64,000 bases of DNA from Plasmodiophora brassicae (lineage: Eukaryota): NCBI GenBank assembly GCA_036867785.1, contig CP145419.1:558001-622000 (forward strand), in the 5' to 3' direction. Both the position numbers and the translations under genes were made by a program. Below are positions 10,431 to 64,000 of the stretch, one piece after another. Position 1 is the first letter of the stretch; each line of letters opens with the position of its first letter. The notes beneath the pieces are model-generated. The model ran no database searches. It was not told the DNA's origin and saw only the letters and a program-made list of their open reading frames with translations.

Positions 10431-11853
10431 CTCACAGCAGCCGCCAACCTCAAGTGCACGGCCCGCCACCGAAATGAACCAGGCCGATGCGCACGGCGTG
10501 ACGGCGCCCCCCTCCCCCCTGTATTGCATCTACAATATGGCACAGACACGTAGAAACGCACGCGATCCAGGCGATCATGCCCGGTCGTACCCTGCTCGCT
10601 CGATCCAGTCGGCCTTGCCAGATGGCAACGGCGATGGCGTCAAGGTCGCATCGAGATTCAGGACAGTGCTCGTCGTCTTTGGCAAACACGACGGGGCGTC
10701 AGACAACCATTGTAATAGACGTCCATGGAGAAACGTAACGACCGTCTGAGTGCACGACGCATGGAAGCAGGCAACCCGGGCGTTGTTTAAAGGTTGACAA
10801 GCTCATCGCGAACGCCAGTGTCGGGATCCGCATACACCTGGTCGTTTACCGTTGTCGTTAAGTTCGTTTGGAATTGAAGAACGCATCCGTGTTGTCGATA
10901 GCGGCCATACAGGCCCGCGCTACAACGTCAATCTCCCAGAAGACATCGCGATCGTCAGAGCGCAAAGTTGTCGTCGATGGACTAACGATTGGGCAGCTCT
11001 TTTGTCGTTTGATGCACGAACTCCATCATATGCGAATACGCAGCCGAAACGTAGAGACATTGTCAGCCACTAGCTGTTCGTGATGACTCTTCAGGCTCTG
11101 GCGTATTCCTTGTGCGCAGAGAAGTCGTGTGACAGAGCGGCTGCGAACCCTCCAGATACATGGTTGACAAACGTGGTTGGCGTCTGCCACTGTTTACATG
11201 CTCTGCACCAGCCATCCGCCCGAGCCCAGATGGAAGACGCCAGAACCTGAAGACTCATAACGAACAAAAGGGTCGAGCTGGCCATGTCCGACATGCGGTC
11301 AGCCATGTGCCGGCAGCCAGATTGCCAGTACGCGGTAGGGTTTGAGTCCAGCGTGTTCTGCCTGTACCACATGCGCGACATACGAAACAAGTACGCTACA
11401 GCATCAGTGACATGTCGGTCTTACCGAAAGAGGTAGCGGGAGTGTCGAGTACATATTTCTCTGGAATTCGTGCAGCTTCCCGACGAACTTGGGGTAGATC
11501 CTTTGCTCCGCTGGTGCGCGTGACCCGACTGCTTGCTGAATCGTCAGATACTATTAGGCAATAACGATCCCGGAACGGCACCGCAGTGGAGATGCTCGAA
11601 CCCATTGCAGACGGGCGTCACATAAACCCGGAATTGGAGAATAATACCCGTGGCCGAGGCAGGCTCAACACCAGAGGAGACTGCCACGGCCATAAGGCGG
11701 CGACCCGCATGTGAATTGTGAACTGTGCTGAACGTCGCGACGGCTGGCAGGGCTATTTCCGGACCAACAAGCAATGGGCCCCATTCGACGCGCAGACCTT
11801 GGGCTCCCACGGCCCACCACCAGGTCATTGCGATCTCCTGTACTGGGTTGAGG

Positions 11854-26444: not shown

Positions 26445-26552
26445 GCCGCACGAATTCGAAGTCCGGGCCCGGCTTTAGCGACATCATTATCAGAGGCATG
26501 GTCGGCAGCAACAGAGGGGTTTAGTAACTGTGGAACGCGATCGAAGCATTTG

Positions 26553-27195
26553 TTAACGTGCAGTTGTAGGCTTCGTGTGACCCTGGGAGGCTTTCGTCGG
26601 CCGCGTCACCAGCTGGTGCTTCTTCTTCGCCCAACGTTGCGCCATGTTGGCCCGCTGGCGAGCCTCCCATTCGTGCTGGTATTGGCCCGTAAGGACGGCG
26701 CCAATGGGCGTCCCGGGACGGCCTTTGGACGATACACCGGCCGCTGCGTTGCTGCTGCTCTTGCGCTCGGTTGCAGTCGGCCGCGCTGTCTGCACTGGGC
26801 TTTTCGCGCCCTTCGTCGCGGTCTTCGCATTGTCCTGTTTGCGGTACTCGGCGACGGTTCTCGATGAGAGCGCGCCGCTCTTGATCGCATCTCGATTCAG
26901 GGTCACGAAATCTCGGCCGGCTTCCGCATGCGACTTCGCCCAGGTCAGATAGCGTTATGCCATCGACCGGCGACGTTACCTTCGGAACATGCGTCTGCCA
27001 GTTGGTAAGCGCCTGCTTGGCGCCGTCGTTGACGATGACCTCCACCTTCCCGAACACATGCGACGGTGGCAGTTTACGCTCGATCTTCCTCGCGGAGCGT
27101 CCCACGCGACTATGCACCAGCAGCGGGTTCGTCCTGAACGACCGCCCGGGCGGCAGGAACTCGTTCGGGTCCGTCTCGTTATCCAGGTTGAACAT
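26553..27195 (-). CDS. CFAP77: CFAP77-like cilia/flagella-associated protein, 2 exons
   Basis: NPLLVHSRVGRS, LPPSHVFG, DGAKQALTNW, GRDFVTLNRDAIKSG, RPGTPIGAVLTGQY and TKASQGH. Confidence 0.8.
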
Positions 27196-27318
27196 GGCGT
27201 CGCTAGACACACCACCGAACGGATTTGGTGGTACGCATGACGATCCCGTCCAGATACAATAGCATCGATCATGGGGCGGGTGCGGCGTTTGCCGTTTCGG
27301 GGCAGCGCGGGATCAAAA

Positions 27319-36909: not shown

Positions 36910-37387
36910 GCTGGCGCTGGTCGTGGCGTCACACGCGCGTACGGGCGCGAACGACGATCTAACACACAATGAGTCACGCGCGCTGGCAGACGACACTTGC
37001 CGTTAGGCCTAGGGCGCAGTCACACACAACGACCCCGAATCGCACAGTCCGTCGACGGCGTGCGTGCGGACTCCGGCAACCGTCAGAAAATGCGCCGCGC
37101 GGCCCCTCCGAGGTGCACTGGCCACTGCCAGAAATACAGGGCCTGAGACTAATCTCTCACGCTTGGGCAGACTACCTATAAGGGGCGGGTCGCCTCCCAA
37201 CGGCCGACCTGATATCCAAGTAGATTCTTCGCTGGCACCAATCAAGCGGCCAGCGGCCTGTGGGTCGTGGACCGCAACCATGGTGCTCCGACACGTACGT
37301 CAGTGCATTTTGGAATACAACAACGGTTGGGTCGGACGCGGACGAACTTGAACGCGAATGCCGCCGCAGGGCGAGTTGGACACGTGT

Positions 37388-39910
37388 CTAGATGAAGTAC
37401 ATCTGCGATCCGGTGCGGCCCATGACGGTCGGGATGCCCGAGCTGGCTGACGCAGACGACGTGTCGGACGACGATCCGGACTGGAACTCGTACTCGTCGG
37501 CCTTGGAATGGAAACGGGCGCGGAATGCCGCCAGGTGCGCGTAGTACGCCGCGGGGACGAGCGACACCGAGCGTGTACAGCGCGCGTACATGTAGCACTG
37601 GCGGTAGGTCAGGTCCTGCAGCAGGTCGGGCGTGAACCCGTTCTCGTCAAAGATGACGTGGTAGTGCGTCGGGCGCGACGTGCCCTGGATGCCGCCGTGC
37701 GCCACGAGGTAGAAGTCGAACTGGCGCGGGTGCACAACGGCCGTGTCGACGACGGTGCCGGCGGGCACGTTGCCGGAGCGGTCCGCTTCGCGTGACGACT
37801 GCGGCGTGCAGAAGAAGCGGGCGTGGTGCCGTTTCTGGACAATGACGAACGTGATCTTGGGCGTGTACCCGGACTCGAGCTCGTTGCAGGCCTCACGAAG
37901 CGCGTTCAGCTCGTACTTCAGGACGTGGTCGAACTGGCCCTCGGACACACCATCGCGGTAGAACAGGATGCGTTCCGGTTTCTTGCCGCGCGTCGCCTGG
38001 TAGAACCGCTTCAGCAGGTTCATCGCCATGCCCTTCAGGTCCTGGATGATCTCCTGGCGGTTCTTCTGCGCGCGCGTCTCACACTCGTAGCGGAACGGGT
38101 ACGCGTCCATGCTGGCGACGACGGCCGCCAGCGACGGCAGCTTCGAGAACGGGGCGGCGTGCGTCACATCAGCGCCGAACACGATGGCCGGCTTGCTGAA
38201 CAGGAACTGCGTCGACGGCGACGAATCCAGGATACTGTTGATGCCACCAACACGGGCGTTGATCTTGAGCAGGATGTTGCGCGCATACATCGGGTCGGCC
38301 TTCTGGACGTGCTTCGACAGCATGCACTGCGACGGGACGTCAATGACCGTGTCACAGACACGCTTGATCTCGCCGTACGCCGACGGGTCCGAGAACGGGA
38401 GAATGATCATCAGCAGCTGGCACTGGCCTTTGGCCTGGTCCTCGACCTGCTTGACGGCCTTCATGATGATGTCCTGGTAGCCGCTCGGGCGCCCACGCGG
38501 GCACGGGATGATGACGGGACGCTGGAACATGATGCCCATGTCCTTCGCGGTGGCGTTCAGCATCTGCAAGAAGTTCATGACCTCGTTCTCACGAGCGCGC
38601 TGCTCGAGAACCAGGACGCCCCAGCGATCGACAGCCGGCGTCGTGTACATGTGCGCGTCCCTGAACTGCCAGGCGCCAAGCTTGGGCACCACGAACTTCT
38701 GCTTGCTGCGCTCCTGGTTGTACGCAATACGAGGTGGGTCGAGAACGCGCCCGTCAATCTGGACCATGCTGGTTTCCACTTTGATGCCAAAGTCAGCTAG
38801 TGCGGGGTCGTTCGGGTAGCTGCGTTCAGCAACCGCCTTGTTGACCGAGTCCAAACGGATGTTCGGCTTGGCGGCCGTCTTCTTGATCATGGCCGCCGTC
38901 TGCGCCGGCGCCAGCTTCTTGGCGATACGTTCGCCAGCGACAATGTCGCAGACTTCCATCGGCAGGCGCGCACCGTTGCTCTTGTTGCCCACAATCAACA
39001 GCGGCAGGTTCGGGTACTTCAGCTTGACCTGGTAACGCTCCTCAAAGTACTGCGCAACGTTCACCTTGCGAAGCTTCCCGTTCTCCTCAATGTCGAACAC
39101 GAACTCCAACGCATTCTGCTTGTCAATGTCGTGCACGCGGTACTTGCGCTTCTGTCCAGCGCGGTGCTTAGCGCAAACCTTCACACCAGCCAGCTCGGCG
39201 CGGATGGCCGTGCGGCTCGACTCGTCGATCTGCTCCAGCGGCTTCCTCGTGACCGATGCAATCAGGTCCGTCACCGCCTGGGCACGATGGAAACAGGTGG
39301 CGGCCACGTCCAGGTTGACGAGCAGGCGGCCGTGCGCGGGACGAAGCGACTGATGGTAACCGAACCAGATCTCCGCGCCAGCGTCCAGCGGCGCCGTGTT
39401 CCGGCCGGAGAAGAACGACGAGCCGATGGTCGTGCACGTCGAAATCGGCGTCGTGCGAAGGACGACATCGAGCGCCTGCACGCAGTCCTGCGGAATGTCG
39501 AGGTCGCCGCCCTTCAGGAATTCGTGCAGCGTCGCCATGTTGACGACGGCAACATGCTCGAGCTTGACGGTGAACTTGTCGCGACGGTCAGGGACATCGA
39601 CAGTCTCGACGCGCGACTGCCAGGACAGCCTCTTCGGGTAGTACATCGTGGCTTCGCCGTCGTAGGCGAACGTCAGGCGCCCCTCGAACAGGTCAGGGAC
39701 GTTGTCGCGCAGCGCCGCCATGACGATACGGTTGACGGCCTTGGGCACGGCCGGCGTGATCTGCACGTTGTACATGTGCAGGTCGGCCGACGGCAGGCAG
39801 GTGACCGCGAAGAAGTTGCTATACAGAGGGATACGGCGGCCACGCGTGCCGGCGCCCTGCCTGACTGGCATGTACGCCGGGCTCGACGTGACCAGCTCCA
39901 TCCCGCTCAT
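37388..39910 (-). CDS. AGO: Argonaute, 840 aa, intronless (copy 2, tandem paralog)
   Basis: Same domain set and intact DEDH tetrad; collinear with copy 1. Confidence 0.98.
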   Translation of the reverse strand: MSGMELVTSSPAYMPVRQGAGTRGRRIPLYSNFFAVTCLPSADLHMYNVQITPAVPKAVNRIVMAALRDNVPDLFEGRLTFAYDGEATMYYPKRLSWQSRVETVDVPDRRDKFTVKLEHVAVVNMATLHEFLKGGDLDIPQDCVQALDVVLRTTPISTCTTIGSSFFSGRNTAPLDAGAEIWFGYHQSLRPAHGRLLVNLDVAATCFHRAQAVTDLIASVTRKPLEQIDESSRTAIRAELAGVKVCAKHRAGQKRKYRVHDIDKQNALEFVFDIEENGKLRKVNVAQYFEERYQVKLKYPNLPLLIVGNKSNGARLPMEVCDIVAGERIAKKLAPAQTAAMIKKTAAKPNIRLDSVNKAVAERSYPNDPALADFGIKVETSMVQIDGRVLDPPRIAYNQERSKQKFVVPKLGAWQFRDAHMYTTPAVDRWGVLVLEQRARENEVMNFLQMLNATAKDMGIMFQRPVIIPCPRGRPSGYQDIIMKAVKQVEDQAKGQCQLLMIILPFSDPSAYGEIKRVCDTVIDVPSQCMLSKHVQKADPMYARNILLKINARVGGINSILDSSPSTQFLFSKPAIVFGADVTHAAPFSKLPSLAAVVASMDAYPFRYECETRAQKNRQEIIQDLKGMAMNLLKRFYQATRGKKPERILFYRDGVSEGQFDHVLKYELNALREACNELESGYTPKITFVIVQKRHHARFFCTPQSSREADRSGNVPAGTVVDTAVVHPRQFDFYLVAHGGIQGTSRPTHYHVIFDENGFTPDLLQDLTYRQCYMYARCTRSVSLVPAAYYAHLAAFRARFHSKADEYEFQSGSSSDTSSASASSGIPTVMGRTGSQMYFI

Positions 39911-40150
39911 GGCGCTGTCGACGCGTCTGCAGCCGCGCCCAGACGCCACAGTCTATCCAAAAAATGACAGCGACCGACGAACGCGGACAGCAGCAATGCG
40001 TCACGCACGCACCCACACAAACTCCGCGGCGATTGACCGAATGCCGGGCGTTATTCGCGTGGAGAGACGGCGTCTCCACAGGGCTTGGCTGCAGCGAGAC
40101 ACGTGTCTGAACCCTGCCACGGGGAGTCGATACAGACACATATGCTGTAA

Positions 40151-42478
<2,328 letters not shown>

Positions 42479-48419: not shown

Positions 48420-49416
48420 ATGAGCGCCAGGTCGGCGTGTGCCTGCAATCATTCGGTTGCGCCCCGTTGTGCTGACAGTGCGGGTACGTAGGTCGTGCCA
48501 TCCGAAGGCAGCGCTGAATGTGTTCCGGGGCGGGAAGTTCTACAAGCAAGTGGCGATCGGCGCCAGCGACAGCATGACGTTCGGCAGGGACGAGTTCAAG
48601 TGCGATCACGTCCTGGTGCATCCGTCGGCGTCGGATATCCACGCAATGTTCACGCACGATGAGCACGGCCATCTGCAATTGATCGATCTGGGTAGGCGAA
48701 CGGGCTGGGTCGATTTGTCGAACGACGTGGGTTGATTGTGAATCAGGCTCCGAGCACGGGACATCGGTTGGCGACGAACGGCTGCCTGCGAATAGCCCTC
48801 GGACCCTTGCCGACGGTGACGTGATCAAGTTTGGCGAGTCGACCCGGAAATATGTCCTTTCGTTAGAAGGGAATTTGCCCGAGAAGCCAGGCCGACCGTC
48901 GGATCTAGCGTAAGAACTGTCGTCTGATTCACACCAAGCCCTGTAACCGAACGCATCGGACAGCAGGGAGTCGTCGTCGAACGGCAACGCGAAGAAGCGC
49001 AGACGAGAGCCTGATGAGAGTCCCCCGGAGCAGATTCGCGCCAGCCATATCCTTGTGAAGCATGTGGGCTCTAGAAACCCGTCGTCGTGGCGTGAGAAGG
49101 ATATCACGCGTTCCGAGGACGACGCGCTCCGTGCAATAACATCGTTTCGGAAGGCGATCGTCTCGGGTGACAGAACATTCGAGGACATAGCGAGATCGGA
49201 GAGTGACTGTTCCAGCCACTCCAGAAGCGGTTAGCATGGTCGCGTCCTGGTCGCGTTGCTCGATAGTCTGACACATTATCAGGTGATTTGGGTAAATTCG
49301 CGAAAGGGAAGATGCAAAAAGCCTTCGAAGAAGTCGCATTCTCGCTGAAGATCAGCGAGCTCAGCGGTCCCGTATTCACTAACTCTGGCATCCACCTGAT
49401 CAAGAGAACAGGATAA
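48420..49416 (+). CDS. FHA-domain + parvulin peptidyl-prolyl isomerase (Pin1-type catalytic domain), multi-exon
   Basis: [36 protein letters not shown]. PPIase: [45 protein letters not shown]. Confidence 0.9.
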
Positions 49417-49721
49417 GTACATTGCCGTATTGGTTCACGCCAGTCCGTTCTCACTGTACCCATGGTGGAACGCTGTGAAACGGCCAGACAGAACGAGATG
49501 TCGTTCTTCAAAGGTCGTGCGTGTAGGTTTTACGCTGCTGGGAAGCGCGGCGTATTACCAATGCGAGCTCGTCCGCACTGGCAGTAGATATGCTGGGTGA
49601 ACGATGGCATTTTAACGGCCTTCCTGTTTGTCTGCCTAAATCTTATGTGTACCTACCAGCAACAACGAGGTGCTCTTCACCACGTAATAGAGTAGCGACG
49701 ATGATGATACTGTGCAGGCCT

Positions 49722-51178
49722 TTATTTGAGGGTATCCCCCGTTGCTAGCGTGGGCAGTGCCAGTGTCCTGGGGTCGTACATGGAGTCGCCCGTTGTGAGA
49801 GTCGTCACCTTCAGGTAGTTGGGCGCAGGCCACTGCTCCCTATTGTTCACGTGGCGGTGGGCATGTGCCATCCGGGTCTGGCGCTTCGGCCGCAGCGCGA
49901 TGCATAGCAAGCACAGCATGAACAGGCTGCATCCTACAATGACGATAATCGTGAACCGGCTGGAATATGCACCTGCCGCGGTGGACGCTGCTGCCGATAC
50001 TGGCGCCAGCTTTGTCGTAGGGAAGCGAGGCTGCGATGCTAAACGGGCCCGAGAGCCCCCGGTTGTGGACACGGCTTGCGGTGGCTTGGATTGGGCGTTT
50101 GGTGCTCTCATGACAGATGCTCGTGCTCGTGGACCTGGTGCGCTCGCCGTCCTACGGGAGATGTGGCTAGGCGCGCGCGACCGTGCTCGGCTGCCCGAAA
50201 TGGTTCTTTCAGGCGTGCTTCTGGGTGCCGGGCGCTCACCGGCCCAAGAGGTGGACAAAACCAACGCGTCGTTGGGTGCCCCGTAATGGGTCGATCTGCC
50301 ATGACGAGGCACGGTCGCTAACGTTGAACGACCGGAGCTGGTGGTTGGTCGACGCGTCTGTCCTCTTCGGGTCTGCCTGGCAGGGTTCGGGACAGCAGCA
50401 GGCGTCGTGCACAGGCCATTGACGCATACGGGATACGAAGACGGGCACGTCCCTTGTGTGCACGACGAGTTTGTCGGCGAAGCAGTATACGGGCTAGCGT
50501 TCGAGGTGTAGTCGTCGAACCTGACGAATTTAACGGAAGGGCTTCAGTTTGCCGCTGTAAACGCCAGCGAATCGTCACGTTGACCGACATGCAGACGTAA
50601 ACGTCCTGTGAATACTGAGGCAAGCACGCCGCCGCCGCCTGCTCGCCGCACCCGACGCTGGTCGCGGCATCATTGACGATCACGTTCCAGTCGTTGTCGC
50701 ATGCACCTGGCCCGTGCAAGCACGAACAGGCCAGGGCGCCTGCGACGATCTTGCACTGCCACTGGAGCCTCTACGAGTGCCAGGCCCCGGTCAGCACATA
50801 CGTTCGGACCCGGGCCTGACCATTGGCGCGCCCGACCTGAACCAGGAAGTTGCCTTCAATGACGTCAAGGATACCCTGCGACCCATAGCTAGGGTACTCG
50901 GCGTCGCCGATGTAATTCGAGCATCCGGCACACGTCGGGTTGGACCGGAAACCGCCATTGCATTGCGTCGATGCATAACGTGCCGCTGAAGCAGCCAGGC
51001 TGGCGTTCCATTGCAGCTGGACCATCCTGCTGGCGGTCGGAACGACTCTGGAACGGACGCTGTTCAGCAGGCGCAGGATCTGCTCCTGCGTGACGCCGTC
51101 GATGAACGCCGTCGAGACGACCGGCAAGAGGACGAACGACAGGATCAGGTGCGCGTGGATAGCATTCGTCTTCTTCAT
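49722..51178 (-). CDS. Receptor-like CAP (SCP/PR-1) protein, copy A (divergent cytoplasmic tail)
   Basis: Signal peptide MKKTNAIHAHLILSFVLLPVVSTA; LNSVRSRVVPTASRMVQLQWNASLA; VGCG; CTQGTCPSSYPVCVNGLC; TM FTIIVIVGCSLFMLCLLCIAL. Confidence 0.85.
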
Positions 51179-51314
51179 CCCATCGACAGCGGGCTCGACT
51201 GGAGATAGTACGGTTGGGTCGTTTGGAAATCCCGCACATTGGTAGAATCTAGGCGCACGAATGTATGCAGATGTAGGTGCCGAGGGATCCGGCTTTGCTG
51301 AGAACTGGTGCCCA

Positions 51315-52990
51315 TTAGATGCTGGCGCCATAGAGGGAGCCGCAATCCGACGTAGACGAGGTCATGGCGCCCTGATTGAACTTGTCCCTGGCGACGCCCC
51401 GTGCCTGGAGCCTGCGAATCGATTTCGGGATCGGTAGTGGCCCACGTCCACGCTCTGGTTCGGATGCCGACGTCGAGGGGGGCACCGCTGCGGGAACCAC
51501 TGGCACTGATTGTGTCCCAAACAGCGGGGAACCGGACGGAGGAGGCGCTGAGACTACGCCGGTCTGCCATTTGTCACTCGGGTACTGAAGGTCGACGGCA
51601 GGAGCCTGAAGCACATGCTGCTTCGATTTTCGTATGCATATCGCAATGCCCGCCATGCAAGTCAACGCGATCGTCCCCAGGACGACCACGGCCGTCACTG
51701 ATACGCTGGCCAGGATGGACAGTTGAGAGGCAGGTGCACCCCCCTGGGCAGCAGCTGAACCTTTGATGCTAGGCTTCAGCCTATTCAGCCACGACGTCGG
51801 CCTGATCAACGTCTGTGAACGTCGCTCAACCTGGCCCGTCATCCGCGGCCGTATGGAAGCTGACGGGAACCTTGACCGCGGCCGTATTGAAGCTGACGGG
51901 AACCTTGACCCTGGTCGTATCGAATCTGACGGGAACCTTGTCGCCACGACTGCATGAGTTGATCCCATCTTGCTCGGCGATGGCCTGTGCACGGACGGCG
52001 TTCGGGCGTACCCAGCTGCGGCAAGAGGCGTTCTGGGCGTTGTCGTTAGACGGGTCCTGGTTGAACGACGTTGGGTTTGCCTCTTCGACGTGGGTACCGC
52101 CTTGGAAACCCTGGAGGATGTCGTGCGGTCCACCCGGGTAAACGGTATGGCTTTCTGTTGTATCCTCGGGGCACTGTGCGTTGTCGTCTGGTCACGCTTC
52201 ACGGGTGGACTCCTCCTGGTGGTCGGCGGCATCTGCGACGTTGGCGGTGGCGACGACGTGCATAAACCGTTGACGCAGAACGGGTATGACGTTGGGCAGG
52301 TGCCCTGTGTACACGAAGCGTTCGTCGCTGACGGCGTGTAAGGGTGCGCATTCGACGTCCACCCGTTGAAGCTTTGCAGAACGTGCACGTGATGAGGTTC
52401 CATGGGCATACACTGCTAGACGCATTGCTTACATGCAAATGTAAATGTCAAACTGGCCGTTGCAAGCGCTTGCTGATTGTTCCCCGCAGCCCACCGCGGT
52501 AGCCCCATCGTTAACGATCGCGTTCCAGTCGCCGTAACAGGAACCTTTGCTGCACGTGCAGGTCAACGTCGCATCCGTCTTCGTACACGACCATGTCGCT
52601 CTCTGCACCTTTGTAGCTCAGCGCTGGGACGTCCGCCACCATCCACCTGGAACGTACCTCGGGGAGGAACACGCCAGTGATGGCGTCGAGGATCCCGTGC
52701 GTCCCGTACGACGGGTTCTCGGCGTCACCCATCCAGTTCATGCAGTCGGGGCAGCTGGGCCCACCGCCGCCCATGTGGCCCGAGCACTGTGTGGTGGCGT
52801 AACTGGCAGCGACCGACGCCAACTTCGCATCCCAGGTCAGCGCCACCATTTGCGCTGCCGTCGGCACGACGCTCGCCCGAACGCTGTTCAGCAGGTCGAG
52901 GACCTGCTGCGGCGTGACACCGTCGATCAGCGCCTCGTATCGGGCAACCAACAGCGTTGCTGTGCCCAGCAGTATCCATGGCGTCCACAT
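51315..52990 (-). CDS. Receptor-like CAP protein, copy B
   Basis: Signal peptide, CAP exons, CTQGTCPTSYPFCVNGLC, S/T/R stalk, TM, and tail PKSIRRLQARGVARDKFNQGAMT. Confidence 0.88.
51844..51940. repeat. 33-bp coding tandem repeat x3 (RFPSASIRPRS) in the copy B stalk
   Basis: cgcggccgta(t)ggaagctgacgggaaccttgac-type units at 51844, 51877 and 51910. Confidence 0.9.
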
Positions 52991-53152
52991 ATTTTCACGG
53001 GCCGGCTAGACCTCGGTGTACCCTGTTCGATCCGGTATCTTGCGAACGATCGTCTACAGTCAGCAATGGTTCCGAGAGACAGTTGTTCGAGTCGCGGGTC
53101 GCCGCTGTTCGTTCACACGTTAGGTTAGGCCTAGGGTTTATGTGCCTGCAGA

Positions 53153-54771
53153 CTAGAACATCGTGTCGCCATCCGATACTGTCATGGTCATGGCGCCTTG
53201 GTTGAACTTATCCTTCGCGATGCCCCGTTTCTGCAGCCTGCGAATCGACTTGGGCACTGCCGCCGCCGAGGGATAGCCACTGGGTGACTCCGATTGGGAC
53301 GATGCCGGCTCCTCAGGTGCCGTTGGATTCAGTAACGCCGGGTGCATCGGCACAGGCGCCACAGGAGCGGCGAGTGACCCACCCGGCAGTGATGGAGGGA
53401 TGGACATAGGACTGCCCCGCCAATCACCGGTCAGGTAGTGGTGTTGCACAGCGGGAACGAACGTAGTTCCATGCTTGGCCTGCTTCCGCATGCAGATTGT
53501 CGTAATGGTGGCTGTGCAGCAGGCCAGCGCAACCGCCCCGATGATGTACAGGACGGTGTTAGAGATGCCGGCAACGATAGAGTAGTTTGAAGCAGAGGCG
53601 GCTCTCACCTCAGCACCTGCGCTTGGTGAATGTGCCTTTGACGACGCTCTCGAGCTGAGCACCTGCCCCGTTGTGGATATCGGCTGCGACACATGAGCGT
53701 TGCCCTGGCTGGTCACAAGAGGCCCTACAAGCACGGCCGACAATCACTACGATTGTCCATCAGTTCCGATTCCGGCTTACTCCTCAACGTTGTCGGCATG
53801 GTCGACTTTGGCGCACCCGGGCGGCTCGACGATGCCACGTGTACCGGGTTCAGTACGGAGCCGTCCGTACGTTTCCTGGACGTGGAACCGTTGACCCCCC
53901 TGGTCGTCTTCTTTGTCACAGGAGCATGTGCTGAGGTCTGCTGCGCTGCTATGCGTCGCGATGTCGTCTTCTGCGCAGCCGGAACACCTTTGGTGGTCTT
54001 ATGCGACACGCGACCACCCAGCGTGGTCGTCTTTGTCACCGGTTTCGTGCATAAACCGTTGACGCAGAGCGGATAAGCCAGCGGGCAGGTGCCTTGCGTA
54101 CACGACGAATTCGTCACGGATGGTGTGTACGGATGCGCATCCGACGTCCACCCATTGTATCTTCGTGAGCACCGTGAATCGTCGAGACGAAACGCAAGCA
54201 CTGAGTACTCCTTACGCGCAGACGTAGATGTTGTACTTCCAGCCGCAAGCCGCTGCCGATTTGTCCCCACATCCAACGGCCGTCGCCGCATCGTTGACGA
54301 CGGTGTTCCAGTCATCCCAGCACGGCATTTGAGGGCAGGTACACGTTAACGTGGAACCTGACTGTGTGCACGGCCACTGCGATTTCTGCATCGCACGGTT
54401 CACGTTCGTCTGCGGCTCGTACGGTGCGACGTACGTACCGCGGCGATAAAGTTGCCGGCGATGACGTCGAGGATCCCGTGCGACCCGTACGAGGGCAGCT
54501 CTGCGTCTGCTGTCCAGCTGACACAGTTGGGGCAGCTGGGTCCCTGGCCGCTGAACTGAGCCGAGCACTGTGTGGCCGCGTAACTGGCAGCGGCGGCCGC
54601 AAGCGTGTCGTCCCACTCCAGTTTGACCATGTGCGCCGCTGTCGGAACGACGTTGGCACGCGCGCTGTTCAATAGGTCGACGATCTGCTGCGGGGTGACA
54701 CCAGCGATCAGCGCCTCTAGTCGCACAGCCAGCAGCGTTGCTGTCGCCAGCACCGCCCATGCCGACCGCAT
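53153..54771 (-). CDS. Receptor-like CAP protein, copy C
   Basis: MRSAWAVLATATLLAVRLEA; CAP; Cys module; an extra 56-nt intron (53725-53780) restores the frame; TM; PKSIRRLQKRGIAKDKFNQGAMT. Confidence 0.88.
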
Positions 54772-54968
54772 GCTCTCGAGGTCGCCGCCGCTCAGATTCT
54801 TCAACGCTGAGCGGCGATCCACTTGGATATCGTCCATCCACGACCGTACGTACCCCCTGACGTCCGCATTGGGACACAGCCAGTAATGCTGCGGCACCCA
54901 GCAACAACTCGGTCGTCGAATACATATATTGTATCGCGTTGATAAGCACGGGAACGATGAACTAGCCG

Positions 54969-56773
54969 TCACGGTTCAGTAACTGACGACTGCCACGTGT
55001 CCGTCTCGGATGTGGTAAGTGTCATGGCGCGTTGGTTGAACTTATCCCTGGCCATGCCGCGTGCCTGCATCCGGCGGATCGATTTCGGCACCATGGAGGA
55101 CCTGTGCGATTCGGCCACTGGGTGTCCGACGGCTGAGGGCTGACGTTGCGCCGGTAAGACGACCGCGGCAGGCGCCACGGGAGCAGTTATTGTCACAAAC
55201 GGCGGTGGCGGGGCAGCGGGCATCGGCTCGTTCCTCCACACAAGTTCCACCTGCTTGGTCGGCTTCAGGATGCATATCGCAATGGTTGCCAAGCAGACCA
55301 CAACGACAGCTCCAGTAATAAACAGGACCGTGTGCGAGATGCCTTCGAAGGCTGACGTTTGCTGGGCGGTGGCTCTCCCCTGATCCGCTGGCGCGCCTTT
55401 GAAGCTCGTCTTCGGCGCATTCAAGTCCAGAGTCAGCCGAGCCGTTGCCCTCGGCTGATGTAGAATACGGGTCTGCGTCTTCGTCCACGACGCTACCATC
55501 CCTGTCAGTAAACACCCAGGTTTCGAATGGGCCCGTTGACTCCAGCGTACCCTTGTGCACCGTCGTGACCATCCCTGGACGTCCTGAGGAGGATGGTTTC
55601 CTTGTCCCCGACGCTTTCTCATTCAGAGAATGCTGATTCGTTGTTCTCGAAACTGGAAGGGCCCGGGTCTGACTGATCTTCTTCCATGACCCTACCAGTG
55701 GCGTAGTCAGCGCCGTTCAGAGCCCACTCATGGCTTCTCCGATGTCCATGTCCCATTGGATACGTTGACTCCAACTTACTTGTTATAGACCGACGTTCAG
55801 TCGTGGCCATCGGTTTGTGTCTGGAGGTGGGGCGCCTCGTTGCGAACCCGATCAGCGGTTCTGTGGTCCTGGGACGGTTCGTCCGCCCCTTGGAAGTTGG
55901 CCGTAAGACGGTACGCGTAGTGGCACTCTGCGTCACACGATGGTGTTCGCTTGATGGTCGTTTGTGCTTTCGCGCGAACTTTCATGGACGTTACCTGAGT
56001 GGTCGGCTGCTTTGTGCACAGGCCGTTGGCACAGAACGGATACGCCGACGGACAGGTGCTCTGCGTGCACGATGAGTTCGTCGTTGATGGGGTGTATGGG
56101 TGCGCGTCCGTTGTGTGCCCGTTAAACCTACAACGCACAACAGGTCTTGGGTAACATAGATGAGGAGGTGATCATCCCAGTTGCCTACGCGCAGACGTAG
56201 ACGTTGTACGGTCCTTTGCAAGCGGTGGATGTTTGCTCTCCACATCCCACCTCTGTCGCCGCATCATTGACAAGCGTGGTCCAGTCGCCATAGCATGGGC
56301 GGCTGATGCAGGTGCACGTTAACGATCCAGCCGATTGCGTGCACGACCACTTCGCTTTCTGTACAGACGTTCAGGATACGGTACATGGGTTACCGCCGTT
56401 GGCAATCAGGACGATGGACAGTGCCACATACCTCGGCGACGAAATTCCTCGTGATAATATCGAGGATCCCATGGGTTCCAAACGACGGTGTCTCCGCATC
56501 CGCTATCCAATCGAGGCAATTGGTGCAGTTGGGCCCTGGATCGGTAAACACGCCCGAACACTGCGTAGCAGCGTATCTGGCAGCGGCGACCGCCAATGTC
56601 TCATTCCATTGCAGTTGCACCATTTTCGTCGCCGATGGCACGACGCTGGCGCGGGCGCTGTTCATCAGGTTAACGACCTGCTGCGCAGTGACGCCGGCGA
56701 TCAGCGCCTCCAGCCGGGCGGCCAGCAATGCTGCCGCTGTCAGAGCCATCCATGTCGCCCGCGTACCCACCAT
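54969..56773 (-). CDS. Receptor-like CAP protein, copy D
   Basis: Signal peptide, CAP, Cys module; stalk frame restored by predicted introns 55928-55994, 55692-55779 and 55502-55550; TM; PKSIRRMQARGMARDKFNQRAMT. Confidence 0.8.
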
Positions 56774-56899
56774 ATCGTCGCTTGACGAGATATTTATACT
56801 GCGACCCCCGGGTCGCCAGCTGATTCCAATTCGCCCCATTATGGTTAATGTGACGCATTCCTTATCCCATGATTCACCTCATCGTGCATCTCGATGGTG

Positions 56900-58388
56900 A
56901 AGTCCTTCGCGGGGTTCGAGGTTGTTTATTCCGGACAGTCCTCACACCACCGACTCTTTCGACGCACGATCGGCCCAGAACATAGCTGGCCGACCTTGGG
57001 GTTCGGGGAGAAGCGACGCGCATTCTGTCTCACGATCCTCTTGCCGTACCCCTCCTGTGCCATGCGCTCGGCGACTTCCCACGCTGACCGTAACCGCCGT
57101 TGCAGACCCCGCAGGAACTCGCGATACGACCGATCGATCCGCTTGTCTGGCAGTCGAACGTCGTACTCCAGCGGGCCTCGTAGATCCCACCCGAACTCTA
57201 GGTAATGGGGCGTCCCGGCGTCGTCGTCTCCACGGTCGGCGCGCCACTCGACTTCCGCTTCGGGCATTCGAACCGGAAGTGTTGAGCACCGTCGCATCCC
57301 GGGCAGCGCTCTTGGGCTCGGGCCTTCTGGCATTTCGTCCAAGAATGCCCCGTGCTCCGACACGTCCGACACCTGCCGGCTGCACCGACGACCGCCTTCT
57401 TCGTCGGCTTGGCGTCGTCAGCGTTGCGTTCCTCGTAGAGGCATTCGCGTATGAACGAGATCTTCTCCCGGTAGGTCCGCCGCGTCTCCAGGTGCTCCCA
57501 GAGCATGTGGGTGGTCACGAGCTTGCCGCGCACCTGCGCGTTGAGCGACGCGAGATAGATGTCGTAGATCTCGCCGTCGTGTGCGCGATCCGGATCGTTC
57601 TCCCGGTACTCGTTCAGCGCCGTCTCGAGCCGAGGCAGGAAGGCCGTCAGGGTCTCGCCATCCCTCTGCTTGAGGGATTTGGCCGCCAACCCCCACGAGC
57701 CCCGCGTCCGCGCCTCTTTCTTGCCCAGGAGTTTGTCCCGCGACCCGGTCGGAAACAGCCACGTCGACGCTCCGACGTGCGCCCGCAGAGCCGGATGCAT
57801 GCCCTTGGACAGGACATAGTTTTCCTGGTCTTCCCGGCTCGCGTCCCGGCGTCGAACCAGCGGCATGGCCCCGTTGAGCCAGGTCTTGACCGCCTCCCGA
57901 TCTTTCCAGGGGTCTTTCGTGCACTCCTTAAGGTCGATCTTGACCGGTGCCCGGAGCCGCTCGTCGTACCCCCGATCGCCCACCGGCGCCTCACTAGCCA
58001 GCTCGCCGCTGCTGCATCGCACGCGTGCCACCGGCCTGTGCATCGCTGCGATCTGGGTCCTTGCCGCCCGCAGCTCCTCCTTCAGGCCGGCGACGTCTGC
58101 CTCCAGCCGAGCCCTAGCAGTGTCTGCTGGCGCCGAGTTCTCCCGGCCCACTGGAGCTCGGCTTGCCTCTTGCACCGCCATCTGCTCCCTGGCCACGTCC
58201 TGCTCCTTGGCTGCGAGGACCATCGCCCTGACGTCGTCCATATCCAGTCTGAGCGTCGCGATCTCTCCTCTCTGCTGGATCCGCTCCTCGTCCTGGACCT
58301 TCATGTGCGCGATGATCGACCTCAGCATGGGACGCAACTCGTCCAAGTCCTCCGCCTTGACCGTGATCGCCGCATCGTCCGCCGGCAT
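56900..58388 (-). mobile_element. Internally deleted LTR-retrotransposon (Ty3/gypsy-like): intact gag ORF 57198-58388 followed by an integrase C-terminal remnant
   Basis: Coiled coil, LKQRDGETLTAFLPRL, and two CCHC knuckles CRTCRSTGHSWTKC and CPGCDGAQHFRFEC; downstream GWDLRGPLE...LRSAWEVAER...PKVGQL is typical of gypsy integrase tails; no RT/RNase H. Confidence 0.8.
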
Positions 58389-58649
58389 GATTCAACCCGA
58401 TACTACAAGCGATTGTGTGCTGCTGAACACGAGCCAATTCAGACTCCACACCGACGTATAGTATGTATGACACATCCGGCGCGATCTCGACGCCGTGACT
58501 GGGTGGTACTCGCCACCGAACAGCAATCGCTGGGCCTCTCCGGCCGCTGGTACTGCTTCATGACTCTGACAGGGGCGTCCGTCCAATTGCCCGCCACAAC
58601 TGCTGGATAGACTTGCTGATCTCGGTCCAGCGGTTTTGCATCGCTTCTT

Positions 58650-58960
58650 GGCACATAGCCGTCTCCCCAGCCGTGGCCTTCAACTTCAGGAAGACATCGC
58701 CGGATCAGGTGGGCGACCTGGCTTCGTTCCCCGGAAATGGATCCTCGGAGATGATGATGATCCACGCGCGTACAATCGCTGGATCCTCCCCTCCTCTATT
58801 CATTTGCCATCGCGTCCCGTGAACCGTTCGCGCTCGACGCCGATGGCATCCATATACTACACCTAGTACAGGACTCGCGGCGTGAAGCTCTCCTTGTCAA
58901 ACGGCATATGCTTCCAGCTTCCACTGTCCAGATGTCGTTAAGGTTTCTTCAGCTGATCAT
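58650..58960 (-). mobile_element. Degenerate Ty1/copia-like protease fragment
   Basis: Minus-strand HLDSGSWKHMPFDKESF matches the copia W.LDSG.S.HM...K..F motif; surrounded by stop codons. Confidence 0.55.
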
Positions 58961-59053
58961 GCGACATCGCCAGCCTCCAGGGCAGTGCTGAAACTCTTCA
59001 TCGGACTGGAGCTTCAAGTTGTTCTACCCGATAAGCGATAGGAGCCGATAAAC

Positions 59054-60603
59054 TTATAGCTGTACCGTGTGATCAGGTTCCGACACGCTCATCGTCATGG
59101 CGCCTTGGTTAAACTTGTCCCTCGCAACTCCACGTAGCAGGAGTCGGCGAATGGCTTTCGGCATACGTGCATCTGGTCTCCCTGGGTCCTGCACAGCAGC
59201 CGACGTTTGCAAGTCCGCCTGCATCGGTACATGGTGAGGCGCAACAGGTGCGGTTAGTGGCCCTGGACGCACAGGTGCGGGATTACGGTCCTGGCGAAGG
59301 GCTTTGGAGTTGTGCAGCACTCCACGTTGCACTGTGATGCGCTTGCGGATCCACACTACAGTGATGGCCGTGCAGACGACAGCGATGGACCCGATGGCGA
59401 ACAAGGCCGTATTGGAAATGTCGCCAAAGATCACCGACCCGGCCGCAGATGCGCTGTCCAGGACACCACCCGCGCCTTTCGAGCTGCTCGTCCTCGTCTT
59501 CGGAGTCGACAATGCTTTGCCAGCGGTGGACCTGGGAACTGACGTGTGGCGGGGATGGCTTGCCAGGTCCGGCTTGGCCACCGACGTAGACGGCTCGACT
59601 GGCAGTACTGCCGATTCTCTCTTGACACTCGTCAGAGGCCAATCATGTACAATCGAAGTTCGAGATATGGGACGTCGCCGCGTCGTGTTTCCTCGGGTAC
59701 GTCGGCCTGTTGTAGGGCGGTTCGTTTGTCTCGTCAAGGATGATACCCTGGCTAGCGTGGATGTCCTCCGGGGTACCAGCGGCGCTGCTGAAACAGACGA
59801 CCTGATCCTCTGGGTCGTCGAGGCGCGCAGCGCTGTCGTCTGTGTCGCGAGGGTGTACATCGTGGTCACCCGCTGCGCTGTGCATAAACCGTTGACGCAA
59901 TAGGGATGTGCTGATGGACAGGTGCCCAGCGTGCACGACGAGTTCGTCACCGACGGCGTGTAAGGACTTGTGTACGACGAGAACCCATTGAACCTTTCAT
60001 CATCACAGTCAGACTGATCTGTCGGCACGCACGATACAGTGTGTGCCTACACGCAGACGAAGATGTTGTACGACCAGCCACAGGCGCTGGCAGACTGATC
60101 CCCGCATCCGACCGCCGTCGTGCCATCGTTGAGAAACACGCTCCATTCATCGTTGCATTGGTATCTGCAGCTGCACATCAACGTGCTGCCTGATTGTTTG
60201 CAGGTCCAGCTTGTCCTCTGTTGCACGTGTTTACCCTAACCCTCAGTACAGGTCTAGTTCAGGAACGCACCTCGTTGAGGAGATCGGTGATGCCATCGAG
60301 GATTCCACGCGTGGAGGCCGACGGCAAGGATGCTTTACCGACCCAGCTCATGCAGTGTGGGCATTGCGGCCCTGCACCGCTGAAGGCGCCCGAGCACTGT
60401 GTGGCGGCATAGCTGGCAGCAGCGGCCGCCATGCTCGCATCCCATTCTAGTTTCACCATCTTCGCCGCCGTGGGGACGACGCTGGCGCGGGCGCTGTTTA
60501 TCAGTTCGAGGACCTGCTGCGGCGTAACGCCAGCGATCAACGCCTCCAATCGAGCAGCCATCAACAACGTGACCGCCCCCAGAGTGGCCCATGCGATCCC
60601 CAT
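59054..60603 (-). CDS. Receptor-like CAP protein, copy E
   Basis: MGIAWATLGAVTLLMAARLEA; CAP; CTLGTCPSAHPYCVNGLC; stalk; TM; PKAIRRLLLRGVARDKFNQGAMT. Confidence 0.88.
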
Positions 60604-60885
60604 TGCGAAAGACGTCGTCCACTTACCTGGATATTTGCTGACGGCGCCCGATCAGACTGTACAAACGCACCAGTTCAACTATCATGCTGCACTCGTACCA
60701 GGAACGACAGCAATGTCCCGTACGTGGATACGTCCTCAGTCGTCCACACGAGGCCAAAGTTATCCGGCATTTGCTTGAAGGAATCGTGCAGGTCACCCGT
60801 CATCATCTTCAAGGAATGCAACTAATTTGGCTAGGACGAACTGGTTCAGGCCTTTGGTGCGGCCATCAACTCATGTGATCTTAAA

Positions 60886-62452
60886 TTATGCATCCGATTC
60901 AGACGGGTCGCTAACCGTCCTGGCACCTTGGTTGAACTTGTCCCTGGCGACGCCTCGTGCCTGTAACCTGCGCACCGCCTTTGGCATCGCATTGAAGGGG
61001 TCATGGGCAGGCGGATCCGCCGGACGTGTGTCGCCAGTGAACGCGCTTTGTCCAACCGACTGTACAGAAGACGTGGCCAGAGGATCAGTCGGCCAGTTGA
61101 TGAATTCTGGGATCGCTCGTGCGGAGAGCTCCTGCTGGTTCCGTCTGCGAATGAGCAACGCCAGGGCGGCCATGCAAACTACAGCGACCGATCCGACCAC
61201 GAACAAGGTCGTGTCTGACACGTCGCTGAAGAGGGACGGCGATCGTGGAGCAGATGCGCTTCTCGTGTCAGCACCTGGACCTTTTGAACTGCTCCGCTTC
61301 GACCGTGGCGTCGTTACTGCCATCCCCGTGCCCAGGCTTGTCACGAACGACCGTACTGAACCTTGTCTAACCGGCTCGAGTGAACGCGTTGATACCCCGC
61401 TAGAGTTTGCCAAGAGCCGAGGCGTCGTTGTCAATCGCGAGCGGGGCCGCATCGTAGACGTTCTCCTTTTCACGTGCCCTGTTGCTGGACGGCTCGTTCG
61501 CTTCCTTAAGGATGGCACGTTGGCACGCTGCAGCGTGGCCCTTAACGTCGTCACAGACGTACGCCTCTTCGTCAACTGCTTCACAGACGTACGCCTCTTT
61601 GTCAACTGCTTCACAGACGTCCGCCTCTTCGTCAACTGCTTCACAGACGTACGCTTGGTCCTCATCTTCGTCACAGACGTACGCCTGGTCGTGAACTGCG
61701 TCGCTGGTCGACGCGTACACAAACTGTTGACACAGGACGGATACGCCGACGGGCAGGTGCCCTGCGTGCACGACGAGTTCGTCGCCGACAACGTGTACGG
61801 GTGGGCGTATGACGAGAACCCATTGAACCTTCCAAGTCGGCATCAGTCGTCGTCGCTGAGGAGCACTGGCAGACGACCCGGTCCTTACGCGCAGACGTAG
61901 ATGTTGTACGACCCGCCGCACGTGCTGGCTAACAGCTCGCCGCACCCAACCGTCGTCGCTCCATCGTTCAGGATGACTTTCCAGTTGTCGTAACAATGGT
62001 ACGACGAGCACTTGCAGGACAGCGTCGTGCCAGATTGTGTGCACGACCACTGCGCTTTCTGACACCCGATCATTCGGATGACGCTGGCCGACCGGCGGAT
62101 AGGTCGCGTGCGTACGTACCTCTCCCATCAGGTCGTTGATGCTGTCGAGCATCCCGTGCGTCGTCGCCGATGGGTACATGCCCTCGCCGATCCAGTTCGC
62201 GCAATCGGGGCACTGGGGACCCTGCCCGTCGAAGTTCGCCGCACACTGTGTGGCCGCGTACCTGGCCGCGGCCGCCGCCAGCGTATCGTTCCAGGTCAGC
62301 CGCACCATCTGCGCCGCTGTCGGCACGACGTTGCCGCGAATGCTGTTCAGCAGGTCGACGACCTGCTGCGGCGTCACGCCGTCAATCAGCGCTTGCAACG
62401 GGCCGGTTAGTACAGCTGTCGCCAGCAGCACCACGACCCATGCCAGGCGCAT
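60886..62452 (-). CDS. Receptor-like CAP protein, copy F
   Basis: MRLAWVVVLLATAVLTGPLQA; CAP; CTQGTCPSAYPSCVNSLC; repeat stalk; TM; PKAVRRLQARGVARDKFNQGART. Confidence 0.88.
61551..61700. repeat. 30-bp coding tandem repeat x5 (RRTSVKQLTK) in the copy F stalk
   Basis: tcacagacgtacgcctcttcgtcaactgct units at 61551, 61581 and 61611, with diverged units at 61641 and 61671. Confidence 0.92.
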
Positions 62453-62699
62453 GAGATTCCAGAGGTCGCCGCCGCCTACGAGGATATTTGCTGACGACCC
62501 CGATCGATTCGCGAAATCATACAGTGACGTTTGCCACGTGCCCGGGTTGGGCGTGCACCTTCTTGACCTACACTGATTCACGGACACACTCCTCAAGAGA
62601 GCAACCTGTAGGAGGGGGTGGCGAGCCGGCGACAAGCGCACGGCCAGGTCTATCGTCCGACGACTACCTAGAACGACGATACAGCGCCTTCCTACAGCC

Positions 62700-63264
62700 C
62701 GACTTCGTATATAGATGCGGCCCGGCTCCAGGTTCCGCTGCGCTTGCCATAGCTTCCTGACCGAACTTGTCGTTGGCGAATGACTTGCGAACGCCCGTCC
62801 CTGTAACGTCACACTTGTGGTAAGACGGTCCCCTGTGCTAGATCATCACTGAACTCTGGCAAGGCGCACCCTGCCTAAATGGCTGTGCTGGACCTGGAGA
62901 TGGATTTGCGAGCGACCGAGTGGGGGCGGCGATAGGCTGGCCTCCGGCCCCCCCAGATGGCGTCCGAATTCGAATCTTACGGCACCTCGGCATCGGCGAT
63001 CCAGCTGACGCAACCTGGGCAGCTGGGTCCTGGCCCGGCCAAGAAGTCTGCCGAGCACTTTGTCGAGGCGTAGCTGGCCGCCGCGGCCGCCAGCGTCTCG
63101 TTCCATTCCAGTTTCACCATTTTCGCTGCCGTCGGCACCACGCCCGCCCGGGCCCTGTTCATCAGATCGACAACCTGCTGTGGCGTAACGCCATCGATCA
63201 GGGCCTCCATTGGGGAAGCCAGCATCAGCAGTGCTGAAACCAGCAATGCCCATGCCGGCGACAT
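62700..63264 (-). pseudogene. Internally deleted CAP-receptor pseudogene, copy G
   Basis: Intact signal peptide and N-half of the CAP domain ending at a premature TAA (62977-62979); ~200 nt later a tail remnant FANDKFGQEAMA (~62745-62780); exon 2, Cys module, stalk and TM are missing. Confidence 0.75.
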
Positions 63265-63380
63265 ATATTCCTGGTCAGGCTGTCGGATAGATATTTCTTT
63301 CTCGCGACCCACACGGTCGTACCTAAACAGTACGCATGACGTGCGCGGGCGTTCCAGGCAAACTCTTCACGATTCATTGG

Positions 63381-64000
63381 TCAATTCAGCTCTGGTTCGG
63401 TCATGCCCACGAACGTCGCTCCCCGGCCGAACTCCTCCCTGGCGACGTACCGAGCCTGTGCGTTGCGAATCGCTTTCGGCAGAGGCGCCTGCCGATAGGG
63501 CGGGCTAGACGCGGCGTCGGAGTCGTGCTCGGATAGTATATCGACCGTTGGCCCCAACGGCGGGCCTGACAACGATGGGCTGTGAAACACGGGCCCCGTA
63601 CCCAACCCGATGGGTGCACCCCGCCAGGTGAGCGTATCGACGCCGTTCCGCATTGCAGGACCCCGATCCACCTGCCTGGCCAGCCTGCAATTCCACACGA
63701 CCGCCGCGACGATCGCTGAGGTGACCGCGGCGGCCCCGATCACGTACAGAAGCCCGTCCGCGAGACCGCCTCCGACGAGGGACGCTCCGGGGGCCGACGT
63801 GCCCCCCAGGTCCACAGGCGCGCCTCTGGAACTCGTCCACGTGGCACCGGATGCGCTTCTGGAACTCGTCCTCGCGGAACTCATCCTCGCTGTTGTCGGC
63901 ATCGCGTATTGTGTGCTGGCCTGGCTGGTCGCCTGCGTCGACGAAGCCACCGTGCTCCTCAGGGGCGTCGGCACCGACGTCGGCATCGGGTCGACGTGTG
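63381..64000 (-). CDS. Receptor-like CAP family protein, copy H (3' part only; runs off the window)
   Basis: S/T stalk, TM GLLYVIGAAAVTSAIVAAVVW, and tail PKAIRNAQARYVAREEFGRGAT. Confidence 0.8.
   Translation of the reverse strand, partial: HVDPMPTSVPTPLRSTVASSTQATSQASTQYAMPTTARMSSARTSSRSASGATWTSSRGAPVDLGGTSAPGASLVGGGLADGLLYVIGAAAVTSAIVAAVVWNCRLARQVDRGPAMRNGVDTLTWRGAPIGLGTGPVFHSPSLSGPPLGPTVDILSEHDSDAASSPPYRQAPLPKAIRNAQARYVAREEFGRGATFVGMTEPELN

Follow-up and report, generated by a model that had tools for sequence, protein, structure and literature searches.

Organization of the locus

The window analyzed here, a 64,000-nt stretch of the genome of the clubroot pathogen Plasmodiophora brassicae, a zoosporic rhizarian (contig CP145419.1, positions 558,001 to 622,000), contains at positions 49722-64000 an array of related genes for proteins with a CAP domain, a cysteine-rich hinge and, in the intact copies, a basic stalk, a predicted membrane helix and a tail. 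Stop-to-stop open reading frames (ORFs), three-frame translations and motif scans delineate eight units, all lying head to tail on the minus strand and lettered from A at the window end to H at the low-coordinate end (Table 1). The scans of the window yield seven N-terminal CAP starts, six exon-2 cores, six hinge modules and six tail motifs; save one chance match of a 4-letter pattern, no further array motifs are found elsewhere in the window. The spacers between the units are 117-283 bp long, with the exception of the D-E spacer (2305 bp), and the G+C content of the window is 50-65% in 2-kb bins.

Intact single-pass genes are represented by five units, C, D, F, G and H. The original prediction, made from the sequence of the window, described eight units with six complete copies; the number and the head-to-tail order of the units are recovered, but the complete copies are five, as the anchor and tail of unit E are out of frame. 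The pseudogene and the partial copy named in that prediction correspond to units B and A, respectively. The ORF of unit A is open at the window end, its CAP exons lying beyond the window, and the retained part has a hydrophobic peak of 2.38 and a tail motif at 63476. The similarity of unit B to the other units stops at codon ~93 (tblastn, blastn), so that exon 2, hinge, stalk and anchor are all lacking; the public ORF piece P0008 corresponds to this stump.

Table 1. Units of the CAP gene array (positions in the window; exons in the order of transcription).
Unit	Positions	Strand	Product	Exons	Description
A	63381-64000	-			partial copy, 3' exon alone: stalk, membrane helix and a tail whose motif has diverged
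B	62977-63264	-	95 codons		stump of a gene, reading from the start codon through ~93 codons of exon 1 to a stop
C	60886-62452	-	481 aa	62452-62120, 62058-61889, 61828-60886
D	59054-60603	-	479 aa	60603-60271, 60217-60051, 59993-59054
E, CAP part	55797-56749	-	272 aa	56749-56432, 56358-56189, 56127-55797
E'	54969-55622	-			membrane-helix and tail ORF of unit E; tail motif still conserved
F	53153-54771	-	484 aa	54771-54439, 54385-54216, 54160-53781, 53724-53153
G	51315-52990	-	521 aa	52990-52658, 52608-52433, 52371-51315
H	49722-51178	-	440 aa	51178-50837, 50770-50589, 50520-49722

The D-E spacer carries a Gag-like ORF of 397 codons (57198-58391, minus strand) with two C-x2-C-x4-H-x4-C zinc knuckles near its C-terminus. 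Its Pfam matches are weak, a zinc knuckle at E=0.06 and PNMA at E=0.16, and neither direct nor inverted repeats have been found on its flanks. Long antisense ORFs lie opposite unit C (60779-61900, plus strand, 373 codons) and opposite the Gag-like ORF (56901-58610, plus strand, 569 codons; no Pfam match); they are probably by-products of the GC-rich, repeat-bearing sequence. Neither an Rfam family nor a tRNA has been identified in 49000-64000.

Gene structure

Intron 1 (phase 0) and intron 2 (phase 2) occupy identical codon positions in all six CAP-bearing units, as had been claimed for the complete copies, and intron 2 splits in each of them the codon that follows a conserved Tyr/Phe-Val/Ile-Cys. 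These 12 family introns are 49-73 nt long and have GT..AG ends; their lengths fit the average of 60 bp reported for introns of P. brassicae (PMC4471660). The spliced models of units D, F and E are letter-for-letter equal to the public proteins P0001, P0002 and P0004. Unit D is the public P. brassicae protein PBRA_004931 (479 aa), which was matched by the query with its last exon at 100% identity, the second match of this query being a P. brassicae "SCP domain-containing protein". Unit F requires a third intron in the stalk (56 nt, GTAAGC..TGTAG), and both splice donors of unit H are unusual (GTCGG).

In units C, D, G and H, the last strand of the CAP domain, the hinge, the stalk, the membrane helix and the tail are encoded by one uninterrupted ORF in exon 3, and hence the head and the anchor cannot be separate genes there. 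For unit C, the public model P0003 (292 aa) was considered as a better alternative and rejected, since it leaves the frame within the hinge and loses the last, invariant hinge Cys. Six further public entries (P0006, P0007, P0008, P0010, P0011 and P0028) are ORF calls made on the window without splicing; they read into introns or start inside exon 3.

In unit E the CAP frame, comprised of a signal-like N-terminus, the CAP domain, the hinge and a 72-aa stalk remnant, stops after 272 codons. The E' ORF lies behind several stops, with stalk-like sequence between the two parts sitting in other frames, and the public model P0014 takes E' as a gene of its own. No intron with a family-type donor bridges the CAP ORF to E'. 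On paper, 23 single-intron and 196 two-intron GT..AG solutions exist, but the single introns would be 234-399 nt long, compared to 49-73 nt in the family. Unit E is therefore a gene that has been shortened to encode a soluble protein, or else one in decay.

Approximately 30-45 nt upstream of the start codons of units B, C, D and E there is a shared element, GTCG.CAG..AAATATC, nearly identical in C and D. The element persists even ahead of the stump B; it may represent a core promoter or initiator.

The CAP head and the hinge

The CAP assignment of the original prediction is borne out both by profile and by predicted structure. P0001 (unit D) and P0002 (unit F) match the Pfam CAP family (PF00188) with 36.1 and 34.2 bits, respectively, at a cut-off of 21.1, and both cover profile positions 1-117 of 117 (E=1.3e-8 for unit D), single exons alone giving weak matches of 21-24.5 bits. 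The ESM Atlas model of residues 23-206 of P0001 has template modeling (TM) scores of 0.78-0.80 over 166-168 residues to four CAP clusters, namely GLIPR1-like protein 1, CRISP3, CLEC18A and CRISPLD2, where models on both sides are predicted ones. At the level of predicted models, the head thus has the alpha-beta-alpha sandwich fold of CAP proteins.

Among solved structures, the best sequence matches are CRISPs from snake venoms (profile E=2.9e-5 for natrin), and the Cys module that follows the CAP domain can be aligned with the hinges found in natrin, triflin, stecrisp and pseudechetoxin. The module is present in all six CAP-bearing units, and one of the same kind follows the CAP domain in 15 of the 20 distant CAP matches described below. 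According to these alignments, it is a known CAP appendage, the CRISP-type hinge, in a spacing variant with four residues instead of two between the first and second Cys; novelty of the module is therefore not supported. All six CAP-bearing units have 14 Cys in the CAP domain and hinge, and a conserved N-x-S sequon at the hinge start. The Pfam search of P0001 and P0002 at E up to 1 gives nothing beyond CAP, in particular no Crisp (ion-channel-regulator) domain, and no kinase, REJ or GPS match was found in these two proteins.

The His/Glu/His/Glu tetrad of the CAP cavity binds divalent cations (PMC4921858). In the family, none of the five rows of the alignment has His at either of the two His columns, while canonical matches do; the Glu positions are kept only partly, and among the six models G alone has a His, one position off the first tetrad column. 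Lack of the tetrad does not disqualify the family from CAP membership or from sterol binding, as exemplified by SmVAL4, which is devoid of the tetrad and yet binds sterol (PMC4921858).

Stalk, membrane helix and tail

Signal peptides and topology were assigned by a Kyte-Doolittle hydropathy scan. Units C, D, F, G and H have one strongly hydrophobic 19-residue segment each (2.07-3.06), followed by Arg/Lys and a tail of 54-110 residues, from which a type I membrane topology can be inferred for the intact units. With so many residues beyond it, the segment is not C-terminal, unlike the glycosylphosphatidylinositol (GPI) anchor signal of Pry3-type proteins. The claim that all complete copies share one architecture holds for the single-pass plan of these five units, but not for the third intron of F or for the tail of H, which lacks the shared motif.

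The stalks of the five intact units are 144-186 aa long, with 27-34% Ser+Thr, 15-25% Arg+Lys and 1-4% Asp+Glu, their net charge being +19 to +39. Tandem repeats occur in the stalks of unit C (30 nt x5, 61551-61699) and unit G (33 nt x3, 51843-51940).

The tails of A, C, D, E', F and G have in common one 24-residue basic motif, located 31-38 residues from the C-terminus and found nowhere else in the window. The Atlas structure rows for the motif are all below TM 0.4, with no usable feature match. Its interpretation as a calmodulin-binding IQ motif was dropped, as the spacing of basic residues and Gly is off the canonical IQ consensus and Pfam returns nothing.

Selection and age of the paralogs

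Identity in the head and hinge of the CAP-bearing units is 52.5-65.8%, and the ratio of nonsynonymous to synonymous substitution rates (dN/dS) is 0.14-0.29 in the 12 of 15 pairs with computable dS (about 0.9-2.3), the remaining three pairs being saturated. The stalks are only 17-35% identical, and their alignment is unreliable. In the tail motif, 17-20 of 24 residues are identical in the ten pairs formed by C, D, E', F and G, with the respective ratio of proportions (pN/pS) of 0.15-0.31; comparisons with A yield 10-14 of 24 identical residues and pN/pS of 0.56-1.15.

These values point to purifying selection on the head and on the tail motif, with the stalk free to vary. Combined with synonymous sites that are at or near saturation, this pattern identifies the units, as far as sequence comparison can tell, as old duplicates. 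Birth-and-death evolution of the array, suggested in the original prediction, agrees with the stump B, the disrupted unit E and the age of the near-saturated duplicates.

Relatives of the array and a REJ-GPS fusion protein

An exhaustive phmmer search against 1.84 billion representatives (E up to 0.001) yields 33 matches. Three of these are P. brassicae models, seven are pieces encoded by the window, and one is a piece from outside the window (P0009); the rest comprises 20 distant CAP proteins (~25-36% identity), one short fragment and one low-complexity match. The narrow distribution proposed earlier is thereby supported: no close relative from another organism appears among the representatives, in a library that has no names and may lack other plasmodiophorids.

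The most informative relative, P0005, is encoded on another contig, outside the window. This 1245-aa P. brassicae protein, named "PKD/REJ-like domain-containing protein" at NCBI, has a CAP domain (E=9.8e-9), REJ (1.3e-11) and GPS (1.7e-6), with seven hydrophobic segments after them. Over residues 1-206 it matches unit F at 78% identity (160/206), and the similarity breaks off exactly where the hinge ends. In the tree, P0005 nests within the array clade (support 100/100), whose internal order is resolved only for G+H (91/92). The signal peptide, CAP domain and hinge of P0005 correspond to those of unit F, but they are followed by a short Thr/Arg stretch, REJ, GPS and seven hydrophobic segments in place of the stalk, single helix and tail motif. 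Such a sequence relationship suggests that modules have been exchanged between the array and a gene of the receptor type; presence of the same head on a REJ-GPS-seven-helix protein indicates that it serves as a module facing outward. A single full-text search returned no paper that pairs a CAP or SCP domain with a REJ domain.

The piece from outside the window, P0009 (161 aa), is exon-1-like and 54% identical to unit D. It reads into an intron at the family position and retains a His in the first tetrad column. This piece could represent the missing head of unit A or belong to another paralog.

Comparison with known CAP systems

Membrane-held CAP heads and arrays of CAP genes are already described, GLIPR1, Pry3 and Lucilia cuprina being the closest examples, and so the architecture as such, contrary to the original prediction, is not new. 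GLIPR1 is comprised of a signal peptide, a CAP domain and a C-terminal transmembrane domain, and some members of its gene cluster have the anchor while others do not (PMC2880257). The GLIPR1/GLIPR1-like (RTVP-1) cluster resembles the array in the order of signal peptide, CAP domain and transmembrane segment and in the clustering of paralogs (PMC2880257), which is a match of architecture only. The nearest predicted-structure cluster of the window head is GLIPR1-like protein 1 (TM 0.79), but in sequence GLIPR1 is not nearer than CRISPs (phmmer E=0.092 for 3q2r versus 0.0035 for natrin). The juxtamembrane region of GLIPR1 is short, and its tail is very short. A long basic stalk and a tail motif are not described for GLIPR1 in the available sections of PMC2880257.

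Pry3 consists of a signal sequence, a CAP domain, a Ser/Thr-rich region of >600 aa and a GPI anchor, and its surface-proximal CAP head inhibits mating, that is, cell-cell fusion (PMC7340583). As in the array proteins, the CAP head of Pry3 is held at the cell surface by a long Ser/Thr-rich region, but Pry3 is attached to the wall through its GPI anchor and lacks a cytosolic tail (PMC7340583), whereas the window proteins have a predicted helix with 54-110 cytosolic residues. Moreover, their stalk is strongly basic and the tetrad histidines are missing.

CRISPs (natrin, triflin, stecrisp) provide the best solved-structure matches (profile E=2.9e-5 to 1.4e-3), and their four-Cys hinge aligns with that of the family. 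The window proteins differ from them by the absence of a Crisp domain, the wider spacing of hinge Cys 1 and 2 (four residues rather than two), additional Cys in the head, which bring the total to 14, and a predicted membrane anchor, CRISPs being soluble.

Other CAP proteins with a membrane segment are known from plant-pathogen systems. MpPR1h of Moniliophthora perniciosa, GrVAP1 and HaVAP1/2 are flagged with a transmembrane domain in Table 1 of PMC10189770, where plant PR-1 receptor kinases are also cited; by these table flags, they share with the array the CAP head and the membrane segment. PR-1 receptor kinases differ in their kinase domain, for which P0001 and P0002 give no match. In Lucilia cuprina, 16 CAP genes encoding proteins of ~250 aa are arranged in tandem within 53 kb (PMC7694928). 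These head-to-tail paralogs with a shared three-exon structure resemble the array of P. brassicae, but the proteins are shorter and the word "transmembrane" is absent from the main text (PMC7694928).

In P. brassicae itself, the literature mentions a secreted PR-1-like protein and small effector candidates of the "cysteine-rich secretory protein family" (PMC4471660, PMC9530463). Literature searches with gene identifiers and with CAP terms combined with Plasmodiophora returned nothing on the array, and no passage on the family was found in the available text of the papers on the P. brassicae genome and telomere-to-telomere assembly or of reviews; nothing relevant is among the top matches listed for P. 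brassicae with REJ or G protein-coupled receptor (GPCR) terms. Three features are not described in the searched literature: the strongly basic stalk, the 24-residue cytosolic motif with its signature of purifying selection, and the CAP head on a REJ-GPS-seven-helix protein.

Possible function of the array and alternative interpretations

Taken together, the data are best explained by a set of old tandem paralogs that display at the cell surface a probably non-catalytic, binding CAP head, carried by a basic stalk, a membrane helix and a tail with a putative partner-binding motif; we estimate the probability of this interpretation at about 0.6. The role most likely served by the sequenced copies would be surface display of the binding head. 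The signal peptide would take the protein into the secretory pathway, where the disulfide-rich head would fold, and the stalk, probably O-glycosylated, would keep the head away from the pathogen surface. Since both tetrad histidines are missing, the head most likely binds a lipid or a protein rather than performing metal-dependent chemistry. The lack of fatty acid synthase in P. brassicae (PMC4471660) makes lipid capture attractive, although the Pry1-type aromatic loop is not kept. The positively charged stalk may add affinity for negatively charged surfaces, and the conserved tail motif most likely serves as a docking site for a single, shared cytosolic partner, which would sort the protein or relay the occupancy of the head. 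The copies differ mainly in the stalk and in surface residues, as would be expected of a diversified set for surface display or adhesion, and loss of the anchor in unit E would produce a soluble secreted form.

Several observations weigh against this interpretation. The signal peptide and topology come from the hydropathy scan only, in which five of six N-termini reached the hydrophobicity threshold, the N-terminus of G being below it. In some public models, units C, E and G are each broken up into two entries, one with the CAP part and the other, a gene or ORF of its own, with the anchor and tail, and the reading frame of the stalk does not stand out by third-position GC content (58-65%, compared to 70-85% in the head). 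The tail of H is of its own kind, and the motif shared by the other tails has no match in Pfam or in the Atlas (for four of four tails, none in Pfam at E up to 10), so that its role is a guess; it is weakly amphipathic, with a hydrophobic moment of 0.16-0.35. The REJ-GPS fusion P0005 is a single public gene model. Sterol binding of the Pry1 type involves an aromatic-rich loop, the caveolin-binding motif; in the family, the matching loop is conserved but rich in Cys and has only one Trp, which weakens the idea of sterol binding. Finally, plasmodia of P. brassicae live inside the host cytoplasm, and in this reducing environment surface display of a disulfide-rich ectodomain would not fit, leaving the free stages only.

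The proteins could go beyond display and be, in line with the original prediction, true signaling receptors, in which binding of a ligand (a host lipid, a sterol or a protein of the partner cell) to the CAP head is transmitted through the helix to the tail motif, which recruits a transducer. Purifying selection on the tail motif agrees with this, as do the same head on the receptor-type REJ-GPS-seven-helix scaffold and the PR-1 heads known on plant receptor kinases (PMC10189770). However, Pfam recognizes neither a kinase nor any other signaling domain in the tail, unit H lacks the motif, and a short basic motif would be no less characteristic of a sorting signal; we consider signaling unlikely. 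A more speculative extension, which we consider rather improbable, treats the signal peptide, CAP domain and hinge as a swappable plasmodiophorid sensing module, placed both on single-pass proteins with a cytosolic docking motif of their own and on an adhesion-GPCR-like REJ-GPS-seven-helix receptor, the two together recognizing host surfaces or, in zoospore or gamete fusion, partner cells. If true, such a system would have a counterpart in animal fertilization, in which CRISP/GLIPR1L1 and REJ proteins play roles.

Another possibility is that the proteins are pro-forms of secreted CAP effectors, with the anchor serving for routing only and cleavage at dibasic sites of the stalk shedding a soluble head that would act on the host. 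Shedding has been proposed for GLIPR1 (PMC2880257), and the effector candidates reported for P. brassicae include soluble CAP proteins (PMC9530463). Each stalk has 3-14 dibasic pairs, and unit E encodes an anchor-less form of 272 aa, whose head has a low dN/dS of 0.17-0.28 in the four pairs, out of five with E, for which dS is computable. Such numbers of dibasic pairs, though, are expected by chance at 15-25% Arg+Lys, and a disposable anchor would not predict purifying selection on a cytosolic motif, so we regard this scenario as doubtful.

The original prediction had named separate transcripts for the CAP and membrane exons as an outcome that would overturn it, and the single-pass architecture would then be an artefact of gene models joining two genes. 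Indeed, public models and ORF calls split units C (P0003, P0011), E (P0004, P0014) and G (P0007, P0028), and GC-rich DNA readily yields long ORFs, such as the antisense ones of 373 and 569 codons. Nevertheless, the order of head, hinge, stalk, helix and tail is in frame in five units, in four of them within one exon; P0003 drops an invariant Cys on leaving the frame inside the hinge, P0007, P0011 and P0028 are among the six unspliced ORF calls, and units D and F are annotated whole. Two separate genes are, given this, very unlikely. Least probable of all is that the array mostly consists of non-functional relics of an old expansion: the stump B, the disrupted unit E, the poor splice donors and different tail of H and the Gag-like ORF inside the array would agree with decay, but five units keep full frames, 14 Cys and both intron positions despite near-saturated synonymous sites, and dN/dS in the head is 0.14-0.29.

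If surface display of a binding head is indeed the function of the array, its members are of interest in several respects. Root-hair recognition and attachment, as well as cell fusion, are poorly understood in P. brassicae, and a family of CAP proteins that are displayed at the surface and share a conserved inner motif provides candidates at the zoospore, cyst and plasmodium stages. The CAP field gains a membrane-anchored lineage without tetrad histidines, plus a CAP head on a REJ-GPS-seven-helix scaffold. Moreover, the public gene models of the locus disagree with each other, which is relevant to effector catalogues.

Other features of the window

Downstream of unit H, there is an ORF (48947-49234, plus strand) that we take, by eye, to be similar to prolyl isomerases of the Pin1/parvulin type. 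Farther from the array, two adjacent full-length Argonaute genes (34396-37002 and 37391-39952, both on the minus strand) each encode ArgoN, PAZ, Mid and Piwi domains (Piwi E ~1e-99), and a DEAH-box helicase gene is located at 40151-42475 (plus strand). A homolog of cilia/flagella-associated protein 77 (26524-27312, minus strand) fits a zoosporic organism. The remaining observations are an ankyrin-repeat protein (11722-13233, plus strand) and a fragment matching the DDE_1 transposase family (5701-6267, plus strand; E=3.3e-6).

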